32,000 nucleotides of DNA from Candidatus Saccharimonadota bacterium. GTDB lineage: Bacteria > Patescibacteriota > Gracilibacteria > UBA1369 > 2-02-FULL-48-14. Location: positions 480,001 through 512,000 of the forward strand of contig JBAZVE010000001.1 of the NCBI GenBank assembly GCA_041661045.1, written 5' to 3'. The notes under the pieces were generated by a model that was not told the origin of the DNA, made no database searches, and saw nothing but the letters and a program-made list of their open reading frames with translations. A program made the position numbers and the translations under genes. Shown piece after piece: positions 13,939 through 31,755 of this stretch (the stretch's first letter is position 1; the number at the start of each line of letters is the position of its first letter).

Positions 13939-14169
13939 TTGTCCACTGTTTCCACTCTTTTTACACGAGTTTTGCACAAATTTACTACTTTTGAGGTTAA
14001 AGTTTTGCACTTTCTTGTTTTTTTAACCTCAGGGTTTTTTGTCTAAACGACAAGAAATATGCGTATTGGGCCTTAATTTTGGGTGTTTTGGCAATACCTT
14101 ACTATTTATAACTACAATTTTATATATATTACTTTTGTTTAGAAAATTGCTTATGGACAGAGTGGATAA
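13939..14169. other. candidate replication-origin-like region (DnaA-box-like sites plus AT-rich block) upstream of dnaN
   Basis: Sites compared with TTATCCACA / relaxed TTWTNCACA:
- TTGTCCACT, 13939-13947
- TTTTACACG, 13959-13967
- TTTTGCACA, 13970-13978 (full relaxed match)
- TTTTGCACT, 14003-14011
- TTATGGACA, 14151-14159
- AGTGGATAA, 14161-14169 (reverse complement TTATCCACT, 8/9)
An AT-rich block at 14101-14150 includes TATATATATT. Confidence 0.35.
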
Positions 14170-14203
14170 AATTTGATTGTATGAGTTCGATTTCCCAATC
14201 TAT

Positions 14204-15307
14204 ATGAAACTCACTTGTTCCCAAGCCGACCTTGCTCTTGCTCTTTCTTTGGTGAATAGAGCGGTGAGCCCAAACAACACCCTTCCCGTGCTTAATAATA
14301 TTTTAATTAAAGCGGAGGGGCGAAAACTTTTTCTTTGTGCCACCAATTTGGAAATTGCAATCAGTGCATCTTTTGATGCAGATGTTCAAAACGAAGGAAC
14401 GCTGACTGTTCCTGCGAAAGTTTTTAGTGCGTACGCGAGTTTACTTGAGGAAAATACCGTGGAAATGGGCGTTTTAAATGGAAATACGCTGGTTATTCGT
14501 ACCGATGGATCCGAAAGTAAGATGAAGGGAATCTCGAGCGAAGAATTTCCTTTACTACCCAAACTCGAAAACCCAAAAGTATTTACACTTTTAGTGGAAC
14601 CCCTTAAAGAAGCGATTGAACAGGTTGTTTTCGCAGCATCCACAAATGTTTCTCGGCCCGTACTCACCGGACTTTACTGGAAACTCGAGGCAAAAGTTTT
14701 AAAACTAGTGGCCACAGACAGTTATCGACTGGGTGAAAAAACAGTGGAAGTTCCTGAAAATGACGAAGAACTTTCTTTTATAATCCCCTCAAAGACCGCG
14801 CAAGAACTCTTAAAGATTTTGGAAAGCACGAATGAAAAGAGTTTTGAAGTTCGAATAGGAAAGGGGCAGATTTTATTTAAAGTGGGCGGTGTGGAAATCA
14901 TTTCCAGGTTGATCGACGGTACTTTTCCAGATTATGAGCGAATCATTCCAAAAGAAATTAAAACGGAACTCACACTCTCCAAGGAAGACTTTATTCTAGC
15001 CCTCAAAAAACTTTCCGTGATTGTACGAGAAAACAACAACAATGTTAAAATTCGTACCGAAAAAGATAAATTACTCGTGTTTAGTGATGAAACTCAAGTT
15101 GGACAAGGGGCCTGTGAAATTCCAGTACAGGGTGGGAGCGTAGAAACCGTTGAAACCGCACTCAATGTTCAATACCTCTTGGATGTTTTGGCTCACATAA
15201 AAGATGAAAAAGTTCATTTCAGCTTGAACGACGGACTTTCTCCTGTTATGGTGACGCCTGCCCAAGCGAGCGGGTATTTGCATATCATTATGCCCCTCAA
15301 AATTTAA
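14204..15307 (+). CDS. dnaN: DNA polymerase III beta sliding clamp
   Basis: MKLTCSQADLALALSLVNRAVSPNNTLPVLNNILIKAEG is a canonical DnaN N-terminus, with three-domain length (~367 aa). The ATG at 14204 is preferred over the tracked TTG at 14177. Confidence 0.93.
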   Translation: MKLTCSQADLALALSLVNRAVSPNNTLPVLNNILIKAEGRKLFLCATNLEIAISASFDADVQNEGTLTVPAKVFSAYASLLEENTVEMGVLNGNTLVIRTDGSESKMKGISSEEFPLLPKLENPKVFTLLVEPLKEAIEQVVFAASTNVSRPVLTGLYWKLEAKVLKLVATDSYRLGEKTVEVPENDEELSFIIPSKTAQELLKILESTNEKSFEVRIGKGQILFKVGGVEIISRLIDGTFPDYERIIPKEIKTELTLSKEDFILALKKLSVIVRENNNNVKIRTEKDKLLVFSDETQVGQGACEIPVQGGSVETVETALNVQYLLDVLAHIKDEKVHFSLNDGLSPVMVTPAQASGYLHIIMPLKI

Positions 15308-15310
15308 CGG

Positions 15311-18300
15311 GTGCCAACCTTTTTGAGTCCAGTGAAAGAATGTAGACATTTGATCAAGCTTTTTCCTTCCGGTCAAAACCTGAAGGTCATTGAGCAATTT
15401 AAAGACCAGGGTTATTCCTCACTTTCAGGGAGCGGGAATTATTCCTCAAAGGCTTTTTTAGTTTCGGATGTTTTAAGAGAGCTCAAAGACATCAATAAAG
15501 TGCTTTGGATTTGCAGTGATCAAAACCACAAAGAGAATATTATTCGTGCCCTTTCTTTGTGGAGTGAGGTTCCGGTTTATGACCTTAATCTCGAAGAAAA
15601 TCCAACAAGAAATAGAGAGGTGGAACGGAAGAACAAGGTCAAGAAAATGGAGTTTTTGAGTTTTACTCTTCAAAAAGAGGCGGCCCGATTTTACATCATT
15701 CAATACAAGGACCTTTTCCCCACATACCCCAACCTTAATGAAATAGAGAAAAGCGTTTTAAAACTTTCTCAGCGAGATGAAATCGACAGCATGGACTTTT
15801 TTGAATCTTTGATAGAACTTGGTTATGAGGTTGCCGATGACTCTTTTGTGGAAAAAGGGGAGTATTTTCGGCACGGAGATTTGCTCACCATTTGGCCGGT
15901 GAACAGTGAGCTGCCGCTGCGCATTGAGCTCGCCTTTGATGAGGTGGAGAAAATAACCCTCTTCGACCAGAATAAAAAAGAAGCCATTTCTGAGATTTCT
16001 TCGGTGGAAATTTACCCCATCGACATTCCGGACGGCAGCAGCAAGCTGCTCAGCACTTTTGGACGGGGGTCTTTGGTTTTGGACGACGAAGTGGAATTTC
16101 CGGACAGTGAAACGGAGGCCTTTGAAGCGGCGATGGCGGAAAGGAATTCGGAATCCAGATACATCGAGTTCCGATCCTTTATGGAGGAGACCCCGTACCA
16201 CCACCACCTTCATTATCTTTCGGTTCTTAAATATTATAATCCGCTCGACTTCATCGCCGATCTGCGAGAAAAAATCATGCAAGAGTGGACGGTCTTTTTG
16301 TTCACCAAACATCCCGAGCAGTACCACAAGCTGTTTGAAGAAAAGGGGATAGCGTGCAGGAATTACAGTAATGGAGATTACCGCGGTGGGGCGGAAGTGG
16401 TGCTTTTCCCCATTGGCCAGGAGGATGTTTTCCCCGAGGCTTTTCAAAACCCGGCGCTCAAGCTCACGCTGATTACGGATCGAAATATTGGGAATTTTGT
16501 GGAGACGGAGAAGCGCGCGCCGGAGCGGCAAAAAGTGTACACCGACTTTCTAACCGGACTCAAAACCGGAGATTTTGTGGTGCACAGTGATCATGGAATT
16601 GGGCTGTTTTTGGGCTTGGATAAGCGCACCATTGAGCAAGTGACTCGTGAGTATTTGAAGATTGGCTACGCCGAAAACGACAAGCTTTTTGTGCCGATTG
16701 ATCAGGCGGACAAGGTTTCCAAATTCATCGGGTCCGGAGACCGGCCGCCAAAACTCACACGACTTGGCAGCGCGGAATGGAGTACGCTCCAAAATCGAGT
16801 ACGCAAAGAAACCGAGAAAATCGCACAAGAACTGCTGGAACTTTACGCCGAACGGGAAAGCGCTCGCGGCTTTGTTTTTAGTGGGGACACTCAACGGATG
16901 ATTCAGTTCGAGAAGAATTTTGAGTATGAGGAAACGCCCGGACAGACGCGTGCCATTTTGGATGTGAAGCGAGACATGGAAGGGAAGAAGCCCATGGATC
17001 GACTGGTGTGTGGGGATGTTGGGTTTGGGAAAACGGAAGTTTCTATGCGGGCCGCGTTTAAGGCGGTTGAAGGGGGGAAGCAGGTTGCGGTTTTGGCGCC
17101 GATCACCATTCTTGTGGACCAGCACTACAAAAACTTTAAGAAACGAATGGAGGGATTTGATGTCCGCATCGAGATGTTGAGCCGCTTTCGCTCGCCCGCC
17201 GAACAAAAGAAAATTCTCCGCGCGCTGGAGAAGGGAGAGATTGATATTATTATTGGGACGCATCGATTGCTTCAAGGCGACATCAAATTTAAAGACCTCG
17301 GGCTCGTGATTATTGATGAGGAACAGCGCTTTGGAGTGAAGCAAAAAGAGGCGCTTAAAGACTTGCGCAAGGAGGTGCACATTCTCACGATGACCGCTAC
17401 GCCGATTCCACGAACGCTCAACATTTCTTTGCATGGGCTGAGGGACATTTCCACCATCACCACGCCGCCTCCCGGACGGCTCCCCATTGTTACCGAGGTG
17501 CGGCGGTTTTCACTCGGGCTTATTAAAAGTACGGTGGAAAAAGAAATTGAACGGGGCGGGCAAATTTACTTTTTGCACAACCGCGTGCAAACCATCGATG
17601 ACATGGCCGCTAAGCTGCGATCCTTGCTCCCAAAGGCTCGGATTGTGGTTACGCACGGAAAACTCCGCCCAGACGACCTGGAGCAGCGAATTTTGGCATT
17701 TAAGAATGGGGAGTACGATATTTTAGTGAGCTCCACGATTATTGAAAATGGAATTGACTTGCCCAACGCCAACACCCTCATTGTGAACAGTGCCGAGCGC
17801 TTTGGACTGGCGCAATTGTACCAGCTCCGCGGGCGCGTTGGGCGCAGCCGAAAACAAGCCTACGCGTACTTTTTGTACCACATGAAGCGCCTACCGCTGG
17901 ACGCAAAAAAACGGCTCCGCGCCATTGTGGAGGCCAATGAACTCGGCGCCGGATTCCAAATTGCGATGAAAGATTTGGAGATCCGTGGAGCGGGAGATAT
18001 TTTGGGCGCAAATCAAAGCGGCGCCATTCAGGTGGTGGGAGTTTCGCATTTTATTCGCATGCTCAATCAAGCCGTGGATGACCTCAAGAAGGGACGAAAG
18101 GTCGCCGAAGAAAATGGCATCCCCGAGGTGACCATAGAAATTCCGCTGCCCGCCTATGTGCCGGATGAATACATTGTGAGCTCCAAAGAAAAGATTTCCG
18201 TTTACCAAAAGTTGGCGGGCGCCGATACTTTGGAATACCTCACGGAACTGCGCACGGAGCTTACCGAAGATTATGGAAGAATGCCGGAAGAAGTGGGCAA

Positions 18301-19109: not shown

Positions 19110-20480
19110 TTATGCGGCTGGGCGGAGGACTAGTCCCACGCTTTTCTCCATTGCGGTAAATTCTTCGGAGAGAGCGGCTCTAATGCGATCGTTGGCCTCC
19201 GACCGAATGAGAGTTCTCATCGCTACTATTAATTGTTGGTTATCCCCTCTTTGTACGCCCAATAAGTCATAAACATTTGCATTGGCGAATTCGCGATGAA
19301 TGGCATCCGTTATTGCGGTTTCATTGGACAAACTTCTCCAGCCTTCCAACGCTTTGCCGAGAGGGGAAGCATGCGCCTCTAAACTGGCCGGGAGCAGGCT
19401 ATTGAAACCAGGGGCTAAACGCTGCAATTCATCAAGAAGCACTGCACTTAAGGTTGGATTTGTCTCTAGGTCTACGAGCGAACGCATGGCCATTCCCAGC
19501 CCAGCCACATCTCCGTTTCTTACCCCAAGTAAGGCGAAAAGGTCTCCGCCAGAAAGCCTTTCCGTCAAAACCTGCTTCATAACGATTTCACTTTGAATCT
19601 CTCTTAAACGCGCAATGGTTTGGCTTAGGGGTGAGGCCTGTGGGGCTAATATGACAAAGGAGAGTACCTCAAAATTATTTTGAAAGGCCTCCACTGAAAG
19701 TTGAAAAGGTTTTGATGTGTCATGGGGGTTCTCCAGGGTGACCAACTGGCGCACCTTGTCGTAAGCAATTATCGCATAGGCGTGAGGGCCAACCAATTTG
19801 TGACCTTCAACAACAATTTCGCCGCGTATTCTAGGAGTACCTGCGGTCAATATACGCCTTCCCGGGTTGTCGGCAGAATATTCCAGGGAACTCAGAGCGC
19901 TCTTAGCCGAAATGCTTATGGGCTTTAAGGCAAGCCCTTTCCCAAGTAGATGTGCCACAGCCTCTTCCCCATAGCCCCCTTCCACAGGGTAGCCCCCTTG
20001 CTTGTCTTTCAATATGGTGCCCCCTCGTGCGTCATGTATTTCCATACTTCTTGAGGAAGCGTAAGCGAGTTCCAAAATAATGTCCCCCAAAGGAGCGTTT
20101 GTTTTTGAATGATATTTCTCCCATGCTTCAGCGCTTCTAACCACGCCCGCCGGGGTCCATTCGTCGCTCCCCGTTCGTTTTACTCGATAGGGGCCTGGGT
20201 GCTTGGCTCCCGGGATGGTGACTTCCCACAAGTCCGGACCCACTTCTTTGATATTTTGGGCGACCATTTGTTTGAACACTTCAGGCGATGTTTTACGAAT
20301 GGCATTTATGGCGGTCAAGAGGTAGCAAACGCCGATTTGACCCTGTCGAATGTTAGAGTCTATGCCGAGGGGATAGAGCTTTTTGAAGAGGGCCGCCTCC
20401 GCGTTGATTTTTGTCCTTAAATGGAGGAGGTCTAAGTCGGCTGCTTTTTTTTGCACGGACTCAGGGGTAGCGGAGTCCAC
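19110..20480 (-). CDS. calpain-like (clan CA, C2-like) cysteine protease with two C-terminal helical repeats (456 aa)
   Basis: Three catalytic motifs match calpain:
- RQGQIGVCYLLTAINA (Cys52) versus QGxLGDCWLLAA
- LVGPHAYAIIAY (His233) versus GHAYS
- TLENPHD (Asn251) versus RNPWG
The Cys-His-Asn order and spacing are calpain-like. The start is GTG at 20480 (20-nt overlap with the upstream gene) or GTG at 20456. Confidence 0.7.
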   Translation of the reverse strand: MDSATPESVQKKAADLDLLHLRTKINAEAALFKKLYPLGIDSNIRQGQIGVCYLLTAINAIRKTSPEVFKQMVAQNIKEVGPDLWEVTIPGAKHPGPYRVKRTGSDEWTPAGVVRSAEAWEKYHSKTNAPLGDIILELAYASSRSMEIHDARGGTILKDKQGGYPVEGGYGEEAVAHLLGKGLALKPISISAKSALSSLEYSADNPGRRILTAGTPRIRGEIVVEGHKLVGPHAYAIIAYDKVRQLVTLENPHDTSKPFQLSVEAFQNNFEVLSFVILAPQASPLSQTIARLREIQSEIVMKQVLTERLSGGDLFALLGVRNGDVAGLGMAMRSLVDLETNPTLSAVLLDELQRLAPGFNSLLPASLEAHASPLGKALEGWRSLSNETAITDAIHREFANANVYDLLGVQRGDNQQLIVAMRTLIRSEANDRIRAALSEEFTAMEKSVGLVLRPAA

Positions 20481-23400
20481 ACTGGTCTTGATTTTGAAGA
20501 AAAAGTTGGTGATCTTTGCGGATGCGCTCTGAGAGCGCTTTGGAGGCTGATTCTAATCGGCCACTAAGGTCAGCACGAAGAGCTAAGTCGGAGATACTTG
20601 GCAGAAGACGCCGCTGGGAAGCGATACTATCCATATGACTACGAAGCTCCAGAACCCATTTTTCGCTTAGGATGTCTCCCCCGCCCAGGACGCGGAGAAT
20701 GTAGGAATTTTGTACGATCTTTTCCATGGTCTCGTCGACGGTTGTTAACCATGTTGCGACGCCTTCACAAACTTGACCGACGGCTTTCAAGATTTCTTTC
20801 GGGCGGAGGACCAGTGGGGGAGTTTCTGTTTCGGTTGGCGCCTTTTCTTCGGCGGTTTTGCCCCGTTCCAGGAGTGTACCTACAGTTTTTTTAAGCTCGT
20901 CTTGGAGCTTGGCGTACTCGTCGACAAGGGCTTTCGCTCGGTTTGCGTCTACATGATCGGGAAGAGGAATTTCATTTCGGACCATTTTTAGGAAATCCTC
21001 TTGCTTTAGGCCGTTTTCTTTACAGAAGGCGGCCATTTCTTTTTGGAGCTGGACACCGCGCTTGTTTACGCGGCTGACATTATTGAGAGTGACATCATCC
21101 GCTTCGACGGCTCCTTTTGTGAAACGACGAAGGGCTGGGCCTCCGAATTCAAAGCCGACTCCAAGGCCGAAAAACATGGCGTTGTTTTGTAGATTTTCCG
21201 CAAAACTTCCTCCGGTGAAAATGGTGTCCAGAGTGGTGCCCAGGGCAACATCTGCGCCCCCTTCCATGGTTGCGCCAATCAAGCGGTTTCCAAGGGCCAT
21301 GCCGTCATCCAGAGAGGAGAGCACGCGCATGCCACCTTTTTCCGTGGCGAGGCGGACGATTTGTTTGGCTTCGGGAGAGAGGGCCATGAGGCGCCCATTT
21401 CGTACGACTGCGGATCCAATGGCTCCGGAGCGTTGAAGTTGGTAAACGGCGCGACCGGCAGCCATGTATCGGGCTGCACCCATGGTCACCGTGTTTACGG
21501 CCATCTCTTTCCCATAAGCATCCACGAAACCTTCAGGGCCATCCTCAAACCCCTTTTGATTGATCACCGCGTTGGAGGCCGTCATGGCGGCTCCGCCCAC
21601 CAAGGCGGCACCCACTACGCCCAGCCCACCCGTTCCAATGGCCACCGCCACGCCCACACCAATAGACGCTGCTATTTTTGTGCCCATTTTTGCGTAGGCC
21701 CAACTTTTGTCACTGGCATTCCAGGAACCGAAGCCTTGGATGTCCGTGAGCAAGTTGACGCCTTCCACCTGGTAAGGTTCCAGGGAAATGCCCAAGTTGT
21801 TTTGAATTTCTTCGGGAGAAGAAGCATTTTTTTCGAGGTATTCTTCAAACTGGGATTGAGCGCCCTCTAGACATGGACCGAGAAAAATCTGAACGGTTTT
21901 TGTGAGGGCTTCATCCGAGGGAAGGGCTTGGCCATCCCGCAAATGTTGAATTTGGAAAATAATGGCGGTGGAAGCCCCTAGCTCTTCAATGCTGTTCACC
22001 GGAGCGGTTAGGATCCCTTTTGCTGCGCTTAAGTCTGGGTTGTTTTGCTCTTCAATCCAGGTAAGAGCTGCCGTTTTTTCTTCGCTAAGCACTTGGGCGA
22101 TATCCACTTTATCAGGAAGCAGCTCGCCGGATTCGTTGATGAGCTCCAGCAGGATTTTTTCGCTGTTGGCGGCTTCACGAGCCAAATCAGACGCCCATCC
22201 TGGGTCGCGGAGATCATCATCAATAGAGCCCAGCCTTCCACTGAATAGTTTGGCAACGGCGACACAGCTTTTTGCGTAGGAAGCGTAGTCCCCACCGGTT
22301 TTTTCGGTGGTGAGCTTCTCGGCCAGTTGTTGCTTGATTACCGTGAAGAGCTTTTGATAATCCAGCTTGAGCTCGTCACTTTGGAACTCGTTGTTGTCTA
22401 CTTTTTCATGGAGTTCCAGTGTCCACCCGATTGCTTCGTCGATGGACATGAGAGGCATAGTGGTTTGGGTCACTTGCATGGCGGCTTCAATATTTCTCGC
22501 GGCGGAATTCTCAAGGGTTTCATCGATGTTCGCGCTCAGCTCTACAAAGCGCTTGCTGTTTGTGAGGTAGCTGTCGCGCGTTTTTTTGTACTCTTCGGTG
22601 GCTTTTTCTTTTGGCAGAGCCTCCGTGAGGCTCGCGGATAGGCCCTCTAAGTTTTCTTGGCAGGCTGCGCTGATTTGAGACAAGGCTTGCTGTTCTTTTT
22701 CTCGGTCGTCCCACATATCCATTGCATTTGCCGCGGTGAGCGCTTTTTCCAGAAAAGCGACGGTCCCGTGGGCGGTGGGATCCAGAACAAAACCGTCTTC
22801 AAAGTCTTCGTCCAGGGCGAGCTTACGGCCGGCCTCCTCGTTTTGTTCGGTGGCGAGCCTTTTTTCAACCAGGGTCTGAATATAGCTTGCCCTTAGCTCT
22901 CCATTGGCAATAGAGGCATCGCTTAAATCTTCTTTGATCTGATCGTCAGTCTGCATGGCGACCTCTGTGTCCAGCTCCTCGGCAACAGCGTTAAGGGCTT
23001 TTGCGTACTTAGGTTCGACCGCGGCATACCAACGGATTGCCTCTACGCTTGGGATGGCGGTAGTTTCTGCCGCTGCGAGGTTTAAGTGTTCGCCGATTTC
23101 CAGTTGATCAGGCCGTGCTTGGGTTGTTTTTAAAGAAAACTCACCATTTTCATCAATAAAAGGGGTGGTTCCCGTTTGAGTGCGCTCGGCCTGAAGTTTC
23201 TGAATGATGGCGAAGTGTTTTCTTGGATCTTCTTTCCATGGTATGCCAAGCTCTCGTTCAACAATCAGAGACAGGTTGTCCCCATTTTCGACAGGGTACT
23301 TTCCCTTTTTCCATTCACGGTAAGCGGCGATGGAGGTAGAGAGGGTTTCGAGGGTTTGGCTGAGGTCCGCTTGCAGCCGGCTAATCTCTTCTGGCGAGGA

Positions 23401-23625
23401 GGCCTCTTTGAGCAGACCAAGAATGTTTTGTGAAAACGCCTCTTGTAGGGCAGGCTCTGCCACTTGGTTTTTGAGAGTTTCTTGGAAACGGTCCACCCCC
23501 TCAATAAATAGGGTCAGAGCCCGGTCTTTTTCTTGAGCATCATCCAGGATGGGTTTGTCTGAGGCCTCAATGGTTTTTTGGACCCGCTCCTGCTGCTTGT
23601 TGATGGAGTTTTCCGAATTTATCAT
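20461..23625 (-). CDS. large orphan protein with central glycine-zipper hydrophobic hairpin (1054 aa from Met34 of the tracked ORF)
   Basis: A long ORF with no signal peptide. The N-terminal ~650 aa are acidic and helical. KIAASIGVGVAVAIGTGGLGVVGAALVGGAAMTASNAVI spans ORF aa 683-721 (nt 21562-21678). A second patch, MFFGLGVGFEFGGPAL, lies at nt 21133-21180. The preferred ATG at 23625 shares ATGA with the stop of the upstream 104-aa ORF. Confidence 0.7.
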   Translation of the reverse strand: MINSENSINKQQERVQKTIEASDKPILDDAQEKDRALTLFIEGVDRFQETLKNQVAEPALQEAFSQNILGLLKEASSPEEISRLQADLSQTLETLSTSIAAYREWKKGKYPVENGDNLSLIVERELGIPWKEDPRKHFAIIQKLQAERTQTGTTPFIDENGEFSLKTTQARPDQLEIGEHLNLAAAETTAIPSVEAIRWYAAVEPKYAKALNAVAEELDTEVAMQTDDQIKEDLSDASIANGELRASYIQTLVEKRLATEQNEEAGRKLALDEDFEDGFVLDPTAHGTVAFLEKALTAANAMDMWDDREKEQQALSQISAACQENLEGLSASLTEALPKEKATEEYKKTRDSYLTNSKRFVELSANIDETLENSAARNIEAAMQVTQTTMPLMSIDEAIGWTLELHEKVDNNEFQSDELKLDYQKLFTVIKQQLAEKLTTEKTGGDYASYAKSCVAVAKLFSGRLGSIDDDLRDPGWASDLAREAANSEKILLELINESGELLPDKVDIAQVLSEEKTAALTWIEEQNNPDLSAAKGILTAPVNSIEELGASTAIIFQIQHLRDGQALPSDEALTKTVQIFLGPCLEGAQSQFEEYLEKNASSPEEIQNNLGISLEPYQVEGVNLLTDIQGFGSWNASDKSWAYAKMGTKIAASIGVGVAVAIGTGGLGVVGAALVGGAAMTASNAVINQKGFEDGPEGFVDAYGKEMAVNTVTMGAARYMAAGRAVYQLQRSGAIGSAVVRNGRLMALSPEAKQIVRLATEKGGMRVLSSLDDGMALGNRLIGATMEGGADVALGTTLDTIFTGGSFAENLQNNAMFFGLGVGFEFGGPALRRFTKGAVEADDVTLNNVSRVNKRGVQLQKEMAAFCKENGLKQEDFLKMVRNEIPLPDHVDANRAKALVDEYAKLQDELKKTVGTLLERGKTAEEKAPTETETPPLVLRPKEILKAVGQVCEGVATWLTTVDETMEKIVQNSYILRVLGGGDILSEKWVLELRSHMDSIASQRRLLPSISDLALRADLSGRLESASKALSERIRKDHQLFLQNQDQCGLRYP

Positions 23626-23936
23626 GAGAGGCTTTTCGTTAGATCTGACTCTGCTTCGTTGACTTCTTGTTTGTGTAAAGACTCGTGGACGGTACGAGTT
23701 GTTTTTCGTTTCAAAACACCCCACTTTTTCAGCACACTTTTCATGGAAGAGGGGCTGGCCGCTTCTTTCAGATGGGCTTTAAGTGAGGCCTCATTTTTTT
23801 CTAAAACTAAAATCAGCGCCGTTTTCTCAAAGTCGTCCATGCCTTTGAGCTCGCTCAGAAGCAGATCCTTTTGTGCTTTGCTCAGGAGAAGGTTTTTCAC
23901 CACAAGCGCTTCGACACGGTCGGTGGAGGTTGCCAT
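23622..23936 (-). CDS. small helical orphan protein (104 aa)
   Basis: ORF with helix-favouring, Lys/Glu/Leu-rich composition. Its stop overlaps the start of the large downstream gene (ATGA at 23622-23625), implying translational coupling. Confidence 0.55.
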   Translation of the reverse strand: MATSTDRVEALVVKNLLLSKAQKDLLLSELKGMDDFEKTALILVLEKNEASLKAHLKEAASPSSMKSVLKKWGVLKRKTTRTVHESLHKQEVNEAESDLTKSLS

Positions 23937-27971: not shown

Positions 27972-28622
27972 CTAACCAACAAGCAGCCTATTTAGGTGAG
28001 GATATGTAGAGCCAAAGCTTTCGACGGATCTCACACAGTACAAAGCCCTCACCGTAGCAGTGGCAGGAGTATTGTTGCGGTTGGAAAAATGTGCACACCT
28101 GCCTACGGAAATCAAAGGATCTTGAATGTAAGCTATCCCGTCGGGGCAGTACTCAAGCAAGTTCATAAGGGGGCCGAGACGGAGGCACTCCACCTCTACA
28201 TCAAGATCTCCCTTAATAGGGCTGCCGGTGTAGACATCTGTGCGCAAAACATGAAAAGCAAATCCTACCTGGGTTTGTACGTCTCTTTCTTCGACAGTCC
28301 CTACTAAAATAACATTGCCCGGCCTTAGATCGCGAGGATCGATAGCAACGAGTGAACGCAAGCCAAAATCCTCTACCGTAGGTATCCCCAATGGTGGCTT
28401 CTCTCTGAGCGCTCGCCTCGTTTGAGATAGTAATAGGCCCGCCTCTTCCTCTAGTTTTAAGAAATCTGCTATGGGCCTCATGCGCTCGTTGTAGCGATCA
28501 AGTGCATCTACAGGACCAGACCCTTGGGCTGGGCGTGCCCCTGTGTATAAAGACGGTGCTCGCATATACTTTGGAGAGTAAGCTAAAGTGGGTAGGATGC
28601 CACAAAACGCTGCTTGTGTCAA
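27972..28622 (-). CDS. hypothetical protein (up to 216 aa)
   Basis: ORF only. It lies 21 nt downstream of the zinc-ribbon gene. Its start is uncertain because there are internal Met codons. Confidence 0.45.
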   Translation of the reverse strand: MTQAAFCGILPTLAYSPKYMRAPSLYTGARPAQGSGPVDALDRYNERMRPIADFLKLEEEAGLLLSQTRRALREKPPLGIPTVEDFGLRSLVAIDPRDLRPGNVILVGTVEERDVQTQVGFAFHVLRTDVYTGSPIKGDLDVEVECLRLGPLMNLLEYCPDGIAYIQDPLISVGRCAHFSNRNNTPATATVRALYCVRSVESFGSTYPHLNRLLVG

Positions 28623-28643: not shown

Positions 28644-28919
28644 TCACCCAATGTTCTCCCAGAAGCATTTTTGGCAGTAAATAGTGTAGGGGGCTTCGGG
28701 CGGGTAGACGGAGAGCATGTCTTGTTGGCATTTGGCGCAGGTGCGTTTGTACATTTGCCGTTCGCTTCGAAGTGCCATGCGATGGCGGTGACGACAAGTT
28801 GGACAATGAGTGGGGGGTGGCAAATTTTTGCGCTTATAAAAGTCGGCTTCGGCGCTGATGACCAGGAAGTTTCTTCCGCAGTTGGGAGTGCTGCATTGAA
28901 GGGAAGGAGAGGCGTTCAT
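28644..28919 (-). CDS. double zinc-ribbon protein (91 aa)
   Basis: Four Cys pairs are present: C9/C14, C39-P-T-C42, C61-A-K-C64 and C82-Q-K-C85. They occur in the context FLVISAEADFYKRKNLPPPTHCPTCRHRHR...MYKRTCAKC...YTIYCQKCFW. The ATG at 28919 lies 5 nt after the upstream gene's stop. The upstream part of the tracked 202-aa ORF only overlaps the neighbouring gene and is not counted. Confidence 0.7.
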   Translation of the reverse strand: MNASPSLQCSTPNCGRNFLVISAEADFYKRKNLPPPTHCPTCRHRHRMALRSERQMYKRTCAKCQQDMLSVYPPEAPYTIYCQKCFWENIG

Positions 28920-28924
28920 AGTGT

Positions 28925-29899
28925 TTAGAGGATTAAGGGTGAATCGGTTTCGGTTTGGAGGCGGTTGTGTTCGTAGTCGGAGATGAAGTAGGGCGTGAGA
29001 TTGTAGTGGCCGCCTGCAATGAGCTCTTGGTGGATTTCGGCGACTTTTTTGGCGTAGTCTTCGGGTGAGTAGGGCTGATTTAAAATGTGGTATTCCTTGT
29101 TTTCCAGGTAGACGCAGCCGAAGCAGTTTTTGAGGTTGCGGGAGTAGGCGCAGAATTCGGAATCGCTGGAGCGGTCGGTGTGGAGACAGAAGTTGCAGTT
29201 GAAGCAGAGTGGGGACTGCACACAGCTGTAGAGGGCCTCGGCTTCGAAACAAACGGTGAGGTCCACACAGTCTTTGTTGGCATTGGCTTCCACGGTGTAG
29301 AGGCAGTCTTCGGAGGCAAAAATGTCGTAGCAGTTGAAGCAGTTTTTACTTTCCGTAATGTGATCGCCGGTGCAATTTTCGGTCATAGTTTGATGGAAGG
29401 CGGGGAGAGGGGTTTTGCGTTTCAACGCTTCCACTTGTGTTTGGATGAAGGCGAGGTGATCGGGATTGGAGAGATCGAATTGGGCGATTTTTTGCACATA
29501 TTCTTCTTTGCTGAGAGGCTGGTTGAAGAGGTGATATTGTTTTTGATAGAGCCCCACACAGCCGAAACAATTTTTGCAGCCGTAACAGTCTTGGCTGTAT
29601 TGGCATTCGGCGCAGTTTTGGCAGTCCTGGCAGAAGTCGCAGCTGTAGCAATTGACGCAATCGACGCATTCGGTGCACCACTGACAATTCACGCAAAACG
29701 ACACGCCGCTACAGTCACTGCATTTGCGGGAATAACGACCGTAGTACACATCTTCGCAGTAGAAAACGCCGAAGCAGTAATAGCAGTTTTTAGACTTCAC
29801 CGCGGTGTCCGAATAGCCACAATTTTCGGCCATGACGAGCTTGAGGTTGTAACGGGGCTGCGTCCGCAAAAGATTTTGGAATTCTTGTATGAAAGGCAT
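28925..29899 (-). CDS. extremely Cys-rich repeat protein with internal duplication (324 aa, ~34 Cys)
   Basis: MPFIQEF... start at 29899. In the run CVNCQWCTECVDCVNCYSCDFCQDCQNCAEC (nt 29603-29695), Cys recurs every third residue 11 times. The protein has two colinear halves, each ending NCFGCV(G/Y)L..K.YH(L/I)(F/L)NQP.S.E(E/D)Y..K(I/V)A. Confidence 0.75.
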   Translation of the reverse strand: MPFIQEFQNLLRTQPRYNLKLVMAENCGYSDTAVKSKNCYYCFGVFYCEDVYYGRYSRKCSDCSGVSFCVNCQWCTECVDCVNCYSCDFCQDCQNCAECQYSQDCYGCKNCFGCVGLYQKQYHLFNQPLSKEEYVQKIAQFDLSNPDHLAFIQTQVEALKRKTPLPAFHQTMTENCTGDHITESKNCFNCYDIFASEDCLYTVEANANKDCVDLTVCFEAEALYSCVQSPLCFNCNFCLHTDRSSDSEFCAYSRNLKNCFGCVYLENKEYHILNQPYSPEDYAKKVAEIHQELIAGGHYNLTPYFISDYEHNRLQTETDSPLIL

Positions 29900-29943
29900 A
29901 ATGGTTGTTGTTAGAGCACAAGGGAGTGTTATATACCCTTTTT

Positions 29944-30906
29944 CTATTCGCGGTCTTCTTGGGGGTCTAACGCCCATGTCGCCAACCGGTTAATGCGTGC
30001 GATAATATTATCTAATTCTTTTCTTTTCTTGAGGGCTTCTCTTTCCGGTGAATCCTCAAGAGGAATTACGCTAGCCACCAGGTTCTCCATAGGAAGTAAT
30101 GCTATTCTTCCGTCCGCCCCTCCCCCCCTTGCTTCACCATGAACTCCTAATACGTGGCGATCCAAGATATATAAAGTGTCAGTATCTCCTCCAACATTAC
30201 AGCCATGAAGGGACCGTAATTCATGAAGATTACTTACTATTGTGATATTTTCTTCCGCTATGCCTAGCTCGGTCATCCATGTCTTAATGTGTTCTGCTCG
30301 TGTTTTTCCGTTAAAAAATGAGTTTCTAATACTTGAAAATGGTGGATGATCGCCGAGGTTGCTTCCTACTATACAAACTTTTGTGAGGCCTTTCGCTTCC
30401 ATGTGGGGCGCTATAAGCTCTTTCAACCTTTCCCCAAATGCATCCATTTTTTGTTTGTAAAATTCGTCTGAGAATCCATCGATTGAGTAAAGCATTTGCC
30501 TACGTTTTCCTTCGTCATCAGGTAATTGGTCAGCGTATTTCAAAGCATCGTCAAACACCATATCTAGAGTCTCACCGGCTATGAGCCTTTCCTGACCTTT
30601 AGGAGTAGCCTCTCCTAGTGCAATTGAAGTTGTACGGTCAAGTATATGCACATGTGTTGAAAGATCTTTCCCTAGTACATCTAGTATTTTATTTTGGATT
30701 TCCTCATTAGTGGCTTCCACCGGGAATGCCACCAATGTTGTAGGATGGCCTTCAGCTTCAAGCCTGGCTCTTATCTCTGGGAGTTTGGTCGCATATAGGT
30801 CATTGTCTCTGTAGACAAGTGCGATCGGGGTGTGTTTTCCAGACATGGTGATGTGGGTTAATTTGTTTAGAGCCAAGAGAGTATTATGACTCATTTTTGG
30901 TATCAT
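29944..30906 (-). CDS. hypothetical protein (up to 320 aa), first gene of the Cys-rich operon
   Basis: Clean ORF with no motif I can name. Alternative starts are Met5 (30894) and Met21 (30846). It looks more AT-rich by eye than the neighbouring genes. Confidence 0.55.
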   Translation of the reverse strand: MIPKMSHNTLLALNKLTHITMSGKHTPIALVYRDNDLYATKLPEIRARLEAEGHPTTLVAFPVEATNEEIQNKILDVLGKDLSTHVHILDRTTSIALGEATPKGQERLIAGETLDMVFDDALKYADQLPDDEGKRRQMLYSIDGFSDEFYKQKMDAFGERLKELIAPHMEAKGLTKVCIVGSNLGDHPPFSSIRNSFFNGKTRAEHIKTWMTELGIAEENITIVSNLHELRSLHGCNVGGDTDTLYILDRHVLGVHGEARGGGADGRIALLPMENLVASVIPLEDSPEREALKKRKELDNIIARINRLATWALDPQEDRE

Positions 30907-30942: not shown

Positions 30943-30970
30943 TATAATTGATGTAGAAAGTTAATCTACA
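30943..30970 (+). promoter_or_regulatory. putative promoter (-10 TATAAT) and inverted-repeat operator in the divergent region
   Basis: TATAAT lies at 30943-30948. The inverted repeat TGTAGA (30952-30957), 7 nt, TCTACA (30965-30970) ends 2 nt before the ATG of the TrmB-family gene. Confidence 0.35.
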
Positions 30971-30972
30971 GT

Positions 30973-31755
30973 ATGCTTACTGCTACCGATTTAAGTCGAA
31001 TTGTGGCCTTGCTCAAGCAGTTTGAGTGCAATGAAAGCGAGGCGAAAATTTATGTGGAGTCGCTTAAGACGGGGCCCACGACCGTGCAAGAGTTGGCAAA
31101 GAAAATGAAGCGGAATCGCGTCACCGTGCACAGCGCGGTGGAACAACTTGTTGAAAAGGGCTTGCTGTATGAAACTCGAAAAGAAAATCGACGGTTGATT
31201 GGGGCGGAAGAGCCGGACATTTTGCATCGTTTGCTTCAAAAACGCGAGAATGAAATGAAGCTACTGAAGTCGAATTTGGACTATGTAACGGGTCTATTGA
31301 ATTCGGTGCAGGCGGTCGATAAAAGTATTCCGACGGTGAAGTTTTATGAAGGATTGGACGGGTTCAAGAAAATGCTCGAAGAGACTTTGACGGCGAGGGG
31401 TAAGGTCTTTGTTTTCACTTATGTTGACCTGTTCTCTAAGTTGCTTGGGCCCGAGTATTTAGAAGATTATTTTGTTCGCCGTGCTAAGAAAGGCATTTAT
31501 ACCCGTCTGATTTTTCCACCCTGCGCATTCGCCACGCGAGTGAACAAAAAGGCCAAGGAGTACAATATTGAGGTGAGACTTTTGCCACCGGAACTCCAGT
31601 GGAAATCCGGAATTTTTTCTTGGAACGACTCCATGTCTCTCATGTCTTACACGGAAGGCAAGCTCACCAATACGATCATCGAAAACAAGGACATCGCGTA
31701 CTTTTACCAGAATGTGATTTTTGAACTCTGCTGGGCGATGGCGAAACCCATGTAG
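30973..31755 (+). CDS. TrmB-family transcriptional regulator
   Basis: The N-terminal winged HTH ([54 protein letters not shown]), then a coiled segment and a C-terminal effector-type domain, match the typical TrmB architecture at 260 aa. Confidence 0.8.

Follow-up and report, generated by a model that had tools for sequence, protein, structure and literature searches.

The stretch of DNA analysed here, referred to as the window, comprises 32,000 nucleotides (nt) of a Candidatus Saccharimonadota bacterium (contig JBAZVE010000001.1, positions 480,001 to 512,000), a member of the Patescibacteriota in the GTDB lineage. It carries two adjacent minus-strand genes that are the subject of this report. 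Gene A (positions 28925–29899, the end coordinate including the stop codon) encodes a 324-residue, acidic, Cys-rich protein that, from its open reading frame (ORF) and translation, its homologues and AlphaFold2 modelling, is predicted to form a double β-solenoid. Gene B (28644–28919) encodes a 91-residue basic protein with two predicted zinc fingers joined by an Arg-rich helix, as judged from its ORF, its near-matches to Pfam models and its orthologues. The combination of a Cys ladder with zinc fingers is real, well beyond chance and unexplained by curated families. The interpretation towards which we lean, by a small degree, is that A and B are split subunits of an unnamed, nearly Patescibacteria-only family of cytoplasmic solenoid proteins, in which Cys serves in packing and the complex has a binding or scaffold role.

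The cysteine ladder of gene A

The coordinates, length and Cys count given for gene A in the initial annotation are confirmed. The product contains 34 Cys among its 324 residues (10.5%), compared with an average of 0.53% across the 18 other ORFs of the window, and has an isoelectric point of 4.9 and a net charge of about −17. A strict C-x-x run of 11 Cys, also described in that annotation, was recovered by regular-expression matching inside the first solenoid (CVNCQWCTECVDCVNCYSCDFCQDCQNCAEC; residues 69–99, nt 29603–29695, minus strand). The phase of this run extends past its ends: between residues 27 and 114, all 21 Cys fall at positions divisible by 3, and in the second half of the protein 12 of 13 Cys share a single phase. 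Aligned with each other, the two halves are 35% identical over 120 residues (E = 5e-25), as expected for the internal duplication that had been proposed. On the minus strand, solenoid 1 was delimited by phase, ladders and DSSP assignments at residues 24–118 (nt 29546–29830), with about eight predicted coils of 12 residues and a conserved N-C-F-G-C-x-G-L cap at its end. Its duplicate, solenoid 2, was placed by the half-to-half alignment at residues 173–266 (nt 29102–29383); it has the same N-C-F-G-C cap and fewer Cys (13).

The gene A product is identical to database entry P0001, a hypothetical protein of 324 residues encoded on a 1.3-Mb contig that bears the label Candidatus Gracilibacteria. 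Sequence comparison supports a start at position 29899 in preference to an upstream ATG at 29977, because the orthologues begin at the same M-x-F-x-x-E-F-Q motif and because the identical entry has the same length. The period-3, Cys-codon-rich composition of the region generates long antisense ORFs. A plus-strand ORF lying over gene A (29087–29914, 275 residues) was rejected as spurious, as homologues were found only for the minus-strand products, and a 202-residue extension of the gene B ORF was set aside as a by-product of period-3 composition that lacks homologues. In one related locus, the public record annotates an antisense ORF in place of the zinc-finger gene (L002:6999-7364 on the minus strand versus L002:7023-7304 on the plus strand).

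Position statistics were calculated for 149 representatives that are mutually below 50% identity, and z scores were taken against column shuffles. In these proteins, 98% of the Cys in the first half and 89% in the second half lie in one phase of three. Co-occupancy by Cys is positive at an offset of 12 residues (z = +6.7 and +5.9 in the first and second halves, respectively), negative at an offset of 6 (z = −7.6 and −3.4) and shows little signal at offsets of 3, 9 and 15. Two further ladders with 12-residue spacing are conserved, E25-K37-E49-K61-E73 in solenoid 1 and N26-N38-D50-D62-N86-D98-N110. Offset-12 co-occupancy together with 12-residue ladders is the signature of a β-solenoid with 12-residue coils, and this evidence is independent of modelling. 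AlphaFold2 prediction for gene A with 82 homologues gave a mean predicted local distance difference test score (pLDDT) of 72.5, reaching 86–91 over residues 40–100, with a predicted template modelling score (pTM) of 0.57, and the DSSP string of the model reads E--E--E--. The weak matches returned by Foldseek are all β-helices and include the 12-residue Tenebrio antifreeze protein. Sequence statistics and model together indicate coils of 12 residues, three to each of four sides, and one residue of every three would point inward. From the co-occupancy values, like residues appear to stack along the axis, and residues facing each other across the narrow core appear to compensate in size. Each core, too narrow for large side chains, would contain ladders of Cys, Ser and small aliphatic residues stacked on one another.

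Most ladder positions hold Cys in 16–80% of the representatives, many of them in no more than 16–60%, and otherwise Ser, Val, Ile, Leu or Asn, a pattern in which the positions seem to be conserved as inward positions and not as cysteines. Because of this exchange at inward positions, we infer that Cys acts mainly as a small hydrophobic packing residue with a free thiol, and not as a link in a chain of metal sites. That the clade of the window pushed Cys occupancy to its maximum, giving the C-x-x run, is well supported. The Cys/Ser pattern therefore appears to fit a stacked structural ladder and not obligate metal ligands or the cross-coil disulfides of antifreeze proteins. Among the possibilities listed in the initial annotation, the Cys-stacked solenoid is the one that the periodicity and the AlphaFold2 model support, whereas the partial occupancy of most positions and the lack of a CxxCxxCxxxCP motif make a metal, Fe–S or redox role of the ladder less likely. 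The conservation of the Cys positions, on which that annotation had staked its proposal, turns out to be divided: most ladder positions are not conserved as Cys, whereas C39, C105, C108, C111, C114, C259 and C262 are Cys in 86–99% of the representatives. A Cys or His at position 123, considered as a fourth cap ligand, was discarded, as Tyr is equally common there.

The zinc-finger gene and the wider family

Gene B begins 5 nt past the TAA stop codon of gene A, in a different reading frame, so that the separate downstream double zinc-finger gene is present as first claimed. Its product has an isoelectric point of 9.2, a net charge of about +7 and 8 Cys, with two Cys pairs in each finger. Finger 1 (C9-x4-C14 ... 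C39-x2-C42; nt 28794–28895, minus strand) was identified from the sequence and from alignment A3. Finger 2 (C61-x2-C64-x17-C82-x2-C85; nt 28665–28739, minus strand) was identified from the sequence and from weak matches to TIGR04272, zf_Tbcl_2 and LIM models, and contains the x17 spacing of TIGR04272. The initial annotation had counted four CxxC-type pairs, which is correct for C39/C42, C61/C64 and C82/C85; the first pair, C9 and C14, is instead C-x4-C. Its scores lie just below the curated cut-offs for zf_Tbcl (PF13451; 23.0 bits, cut-off 24), zf_Tbcl_2 (PF23477; 21.1 bits, cut-off 27) and TIGR04272 (17.7 bits, cut-off 36), and the close gene B orthologues P0121–P0129 carry a precomputed PF13451 record. 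These three families are described as 'probable treble clef' fingers, and the fingers of gene B align with them end to end (residues 13–47 and 54–86). They have no assigned function, so that membership of gene B would say little about mechanism. Finger 2 also weakly resembles the second finger of the LIM domain (CRP1/CRP2; PDB 1ctl, 1cxx), with a non-significant profile E value of 0.016–0.03, and shares with it the arrangement C-x2-C-x17-C-x2-C and the motif (V/I)-Y-C-x-x-C-(F/Y). Since LIM fingers bind proteins, this resemblance is compatible with a docking role for gene B. However, the match spans only half of a LIM domain, and the His or Asp ligand pattern is absent.

Across the zinc-finger modules of the family, Y28, P36, C39, R43, R47 and C61 are invariant, and R51, R54 and R59 are nearly so. 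Many paralogues in alignment A3 (P0110, P0154, P0166 and P0178) replace the second Cys of a CxxC pair, as in the segments C-E-I-S-G-S, C-P-E-E-R and V-Y-D-L-E-Y. Because this second Cys is often lost while Arg, Tyr and Pro are kept, the conserved feature appears to be the Arg-rich helix between the fingers. With such replacements, zinc binding may have been lost in some of the family's 'zinc fingers'.

A word-index search returned 334 homologues of gene A, with matches down to E = 1e-54 over 90–100% of the query, and the named taxa among them are all Peregrinibacteria, Peribacteria, Gracilibacteria or an unclassified Patescibacteria bin. In a profile search of 1.84 billion cluster representatives (clusters at 50% identity), 3,973 representatives matched at E ≤ 1e-3 and 1,462 at E ≤ 1e-30. 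Core relatives among these representatives are almost all in the Patescibacteria, and gene A is homologous to the family profile over the full length of the core. Most of the 150 matches listed are about 550 residues long, with the core at residues ~100–410. In several long relatives that were inspected, the two solenoids have a double zinc finger on either side: a W-W-S-D-x-W linker connects them to the N-terminal one, and a G-E-W-G-E-F-F-P segment leads to the C-terminal one. The N-terminal fusion of zinc ribbons to Cys repeats, which the initial annotation had mentioned, is indeed seen in most of the listed ~550-residue relatives. Its remark that the two parts lie in the opposite order here is misleading, because gene B corresponds to the C-terminal finger pair and 14 close orthologues are fused A–B proteins in the order of the window.

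Gene A lacks the N-terminal zinc-finger pair and begins directly with the P-F-(F/I)-x-x-F motif, which in the long forms comes after the N-terminal fingers; no B-like ORF was found upstream of it in the window, and the C-terminal pair is present as the separate gene B. By this comparison, the clade of the window appears to be a stripped, split variant of the family without N-terminal fingers. Members of the clade, which share 55–80% identity, include 67 split proteins of 300–360 residues as well as the 14 fused ones (400–430 residues). Gene B adjoins gene A in all eight close loci outside the window, and the spacing between A and B among orthologues ranges from a 4-nt overlap to 107 nt. The idea that readthrough of the stop codon joins the two products was rejected, as gene B differs in frame from gene A and every orthologue of it starts with an ATG of its own. 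More distant members are often amplified: tblastn searches of contigs from one genome per species revealed tandem arrays with at least six finger–core–finger copies in ~10 kb (L031, L077, L022 and L013), in which the paralogues are ~30% identical to the protein of the window. Arrays of at least six paralogous genes were also seen in L024 and L081. Crude ORF clustering across 82 loci gave 210 family ORFs with a median length of 525 residues. One member, P0178 (731 residues), carries an N-terminal GNAT acetyltransferase domain fused to a zinc finger–solenoid–zinc finger body.

No characterised family was found to contain the Cys-ladder protein, in agreement with the earlier supposition. Scans of gene A against Pfam, NCBIfam and PADLOC returned noise only (DUF362, E = 0.013; PDC-M30A, E = 0.016; AFP repeat, E = 0.53), PDB searches with the single sequence and with a profile gave nothing for the core below E = 0.05 (the MLL CXXC domain being best), and Foldseek comparison of two AlphaFold2 models with the PDB gave no match at E ≤ 0.001. 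No literature on this core family was found. The ferredoxin-type motif C-x2-C-x2-C-x3-C-P is absent from gene A, in which the spacing is uniformly x2 and no C-P follows; Fer4 of Pfam does not match gene A, and matches to PsaC have E ≥ 0.9. The sole library family that matches the core is phrog_15341, of unassigned function (E = 7.7e-15). It and a set of small phage proteins share with gene A the (N/D)-C-x-x-C hexad ladder and the C-F-G-C-x-G-(I/L) cap (hhalign probability 97.6%). Single-solenoid relatives of this kind occur in the Campylobacter phage CP220 group, Vibrio phage 1.238, Flavobacterium phage FL-1 and several IMG/VR contigs. Unlike gene A, the phage proteins lack a zinc-finger pair and any duplication, and consist of one solenoid with different N- or C-terminal parts in 100–260 residues. 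The CP220 copy (L085:5977-6348) adjoins a putative DNA ligase. Together with L088:5920-6708 and L092:6168-6473, it consists almost wholly of (N/D/S/G)-C-x-x-C hexads.

Cys-rich proteins have been described from Peribacteria, where they are large (1,655 residues on average), extracellular, mostly equipped with signal peptides and similar to Cys-rich repeats of Myxococcus, in a lineage whose proteome Cys content is unusually high at 1.67% (Anantharaman et al. 2016, PMC4736985). The present family comes from the same lineage, but its members are smaller (320–560 residues) and predicted to be cytoplasmic, and they are not described in that study.

Genomic neighbourhood

The only widely conserved neighbour of the family is a TrmB-family regulator. 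In the window this is a winged-helix protein of 260 residues, encoded divergently from A–B (30973–31755, plus strand; PF01978, 36.3 bits, cut-off 25.6). Nine related loci, which amount to eight distinct places as L003 repeats L002, have an orthologue with 58–66% identity upstream of A in divergent orientation, and more distant TrmB paralogues flank the arrays (31 ORFs in 26 of the 82 loci). A perfect palindrome, TGTAGAAAGTTAATCTACA (TGTAGA-N7-TCTACA; 30952–30970, no strand assigned), lies 2 nt upstream of the regulator start and occurs once in the window. The exact TGTAGA-N7-TCTACA pattern is found at the equivalent place in L001, L002, L006, L008 and L011, and in degenerate form in L009 and L010. 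From its position and recurrence, this candidate operator is presumed to be that of the TrmB-like regulator.

Between the regulator and gene A lies a minus-strand gene of no known family, defined by its ORF and the GC profile (29944–30906, 320 residues), which has no match in Pfam, NCBIfam, PHROGs or PADLOC. Its GC content is 41.6%, compared with ~50% around it, and none of the related loci contains it, the regulator and A being adjacent and divergent there. It is probably an insertion, possibly acquired, that is now co-transcribed with A and B. No promoter-like site was found upstream of gene A, which suggests that A and B are probably read, along with the 320-residue gene, from the divergent promoter. 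This promoter would be governed by the TrmB-like regulator through TGTAGA-N7-TCTACA.

Besides this gene, window ORFs of 216, 120, 243, 147 and 374 residues are likewise not conserved beside the family in related loci. The ORF of up to 216 residues (27972–28622, minus strand) lies 21 nt downstream of gene B and has a TTG start, with an internal ATG possible; it contains 2.3% Cys and matches no family. The remainder of the window is ordinary chromosome, including ftsA, ftsZ, femAB, a release factor, RNase J, dnaN and mfd. The GC content falls to 39–41% at 14001–16000, across dnaN (14177–15307) and the start of mfd, compared with ~50% elsewhere, and the cumulative GC skew has no turning point in the window. 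Two long minus-strand ORFs, at 20461–23724 (1,087 residues) and 17–1768 (583 residues), have no Pfam match at E ≤ 1e-4.

Candidate functions and their implications

No signal peptide was found in gene A, and no hydrophobic segment in gene A, gene B or 246 of 248 relatives; together with the zinc fingers this points to a cytoplasmic location. A complex of A and B is suggested by the 14 fused orthologues, the complementary charges and the comparison of models. The fused orthologue P0023, predicted by AlphaFold2 with 76 sequences, is modelled as one compact unit with a pTM of 0.87 and a pLDDT of 90–95 in the finger region, compared with a pTM of 0.57 for A alone. The acidic solenoid pair would bind the basic, Arg-rich product of gene B through electrostatic docking, rebuilding the fused protein. 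For the resulting complex, a non-enzymatic binding or scaffold role is our best guess. No conserved residues of catalytic type are evident in the family. The outward residues Y40, E49, D50, Y53, D65, E73, Y76, E77 and Y85 are strongly conserved across the representatives, and their Tyr, Glu and Asp side chains suggest a shared interaction surface or inter-domain packing, which argues against a hypervariable recognition surface.

The abundance of Cys could also be explained if the inward thiols lined a thiolate channel or sites for Zn, Cu(I), Fe or Fe–S, making the protein a cytoplasmic metal store, buffer, sensor or redox protein. This explanation, which we consider unlikely, would account for the Cys enrichment of gene A over its neighbours, the three consecutive coils with Cys at all four inward positions, the retention of Cys at 8.7–12.8% in the ortholog clade and the near-invariant C-x2-C-x2-C-F-G-C at the caps. 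It is also in keeping with a partner, gene B, that is itself a predicted metal-binding module, and with weak, non-significant sequence similarity to PsaC and to the CXXC zinc domain of MLL (E = 0.05). However, the exchange of Cys for Ser, Val, Ile, Leu and Asn at most ladder positions is unlike the behaviour of ligands. Paired CxxC knuckles should produce co-occupancy at offsets 3 and 15, yet the values there are near zero and only offset 12 is positive; no CxxCxxCxxxCP motif is present. Moreover, solenoid 2 has the same fold with far fewer Cys, and a 12-residue coil leaves scant room for ions, as is generally known from the Tenebrio antifreeze structure. Still more specific, and very unlikely in our judgement, is the idea that in the clade of the window the thiol-only core, in which several coils each have four inward Cys, could accommodate metal ions in a column or serve as a redox-switchable thiol stack. 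If this were true, A–B would represent a new kind of cytoplasmic metal store or sensor, with a β-solenoid as its scaffold and with the zinc-finger partner and the TrmB-like regulator as its read-out. The Tenebrio molitor protein (PDB 1ezg; PF02420) raises another alternative, a disulfide-stabilised β-helix of the antifreeze type that is secreted or ice-binding. It shares with the family the 12-residue coil, the inward orientation of every third residue and a very narrow core of Cys, Ser or Ala. Among solved folds, Foldseek matches the ladder at noticeable identity to this one only (1ezg and 1l1i, 28–29% identity, probability 0.4–0.5). The AFP repeat also appears among the Pfam noise matches, and the Vibrio phage relative is annotated 'insect antifreeze protein'. 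The Tenebrio protein, however, is secreted, is braced by i/i+6 disulfides and displays ice-binding T-C-T arrays, and gene A has none of these signs: a signal peptide, membrane segments and T-C-T arrays are absent, and co-occupancy at offset 6, the antifreeze disulfide spacing, is negative, although this is an indirect test. The AFP hidden Markov model scores 11.2 bits against a cut-off of 36.5, and gene A also differs in having an acidic surface, a duplicated domain and, fused or paired with it, zinc fingers of intracellular type. The antifreeze-type reading is largely refuted and highly improbable, and the similarity is better regarded as one of analogous or very distantly related folds than as a sign that gene A belongs to that family.

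A further proposal addresses what the family does and does not conflict with the solenoid structure. The proteins might be components of a conflict system, a set of diversifying, tandemly amplified cytoplasmic sensors or decoys directed against phages or mobile elements, with the phage single-solenoid proteins as mimics or inhibitors. We regard this as quite unlikely, although it would give meaning to the tandem arrays of paralogues at ~30% identity, to the phage homologues of the CP220 group, Vibrio 1.238, FL-1 and IMG/VR, to the single GNAT fusion and to a HerA/VirD4-like ATPase that lies beside arrays in 10 of the 82 loci. No PADLOC model matches, the strongly conserved outward residues are unlike a diversifying recognition surface, and the clade of the window is conserved in a housekeeping-like manner. 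The clade is also single-copy in seven of eight close loci (L006 adds a distant paralogue), beside the same TrmB-like regulator. The array-adjacent ATPase is ~745 residues long, with weak HerA (DUF87) and T4SS-DNA_transf matches (L042:1794-3956, L024:6721-8961, L028:8060-10300, L037:6387-8762, L073:6390-8645 and L080:2389-4626); none occurs in the window.

Several observations also weigh against the split cytoplasmic solenoid with packed Cys and a binding or scaffold role. The inward orientation of the Cys and the A–B interface derive from periodicity, DSSP strings and pTM values, and solenoid 1 falls to a pLDDT of 61–68 in the fused model, so that its geometry is less certain. The ortholog clade keeps its high Cys content under purifying selection even though Ser or Val would do, which a pure packing role does not readily account for, and the seven Cys conserved at 86–99% leave room for one or two local metal sites at the solenoid caps. 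The binding or scaffold role draws on the absence of evidence for the alternatives, and co-transcription with the 320-residue gene and TrmB control are deduced from gene arrangement only.

The proteins are best described as combining parts of known kinds, a narrow β-solenoid with Cys/Ser ladders and fingers of the treble-clef type, in a very large family of the Patescibacteria. This family comprises ~4,000 clusters at 50% identity, and its core has no Pfam or NCBIfam model and no solved relative. It occupies tens of kilobases in some genomes of ~1 Mb in the candidate phyla radiation, and its tandem arrays are a large coding investment. If the thiol core binds metals, it would constitute a new metal-binding scaffold. 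The ultra-narrow 12-residue β-helix, until now familiar from an insect antifreeze protein that is secreted and braced by disulfides, may form in the cytoplasm as well, where it would rest on stacked Cys/Ser ladders. The defined architecture, the natural split and fused forms that predict a heterodimer, and the candidate regulator–operator pair offer starting points for understanding this family in uncultivated bacteria.

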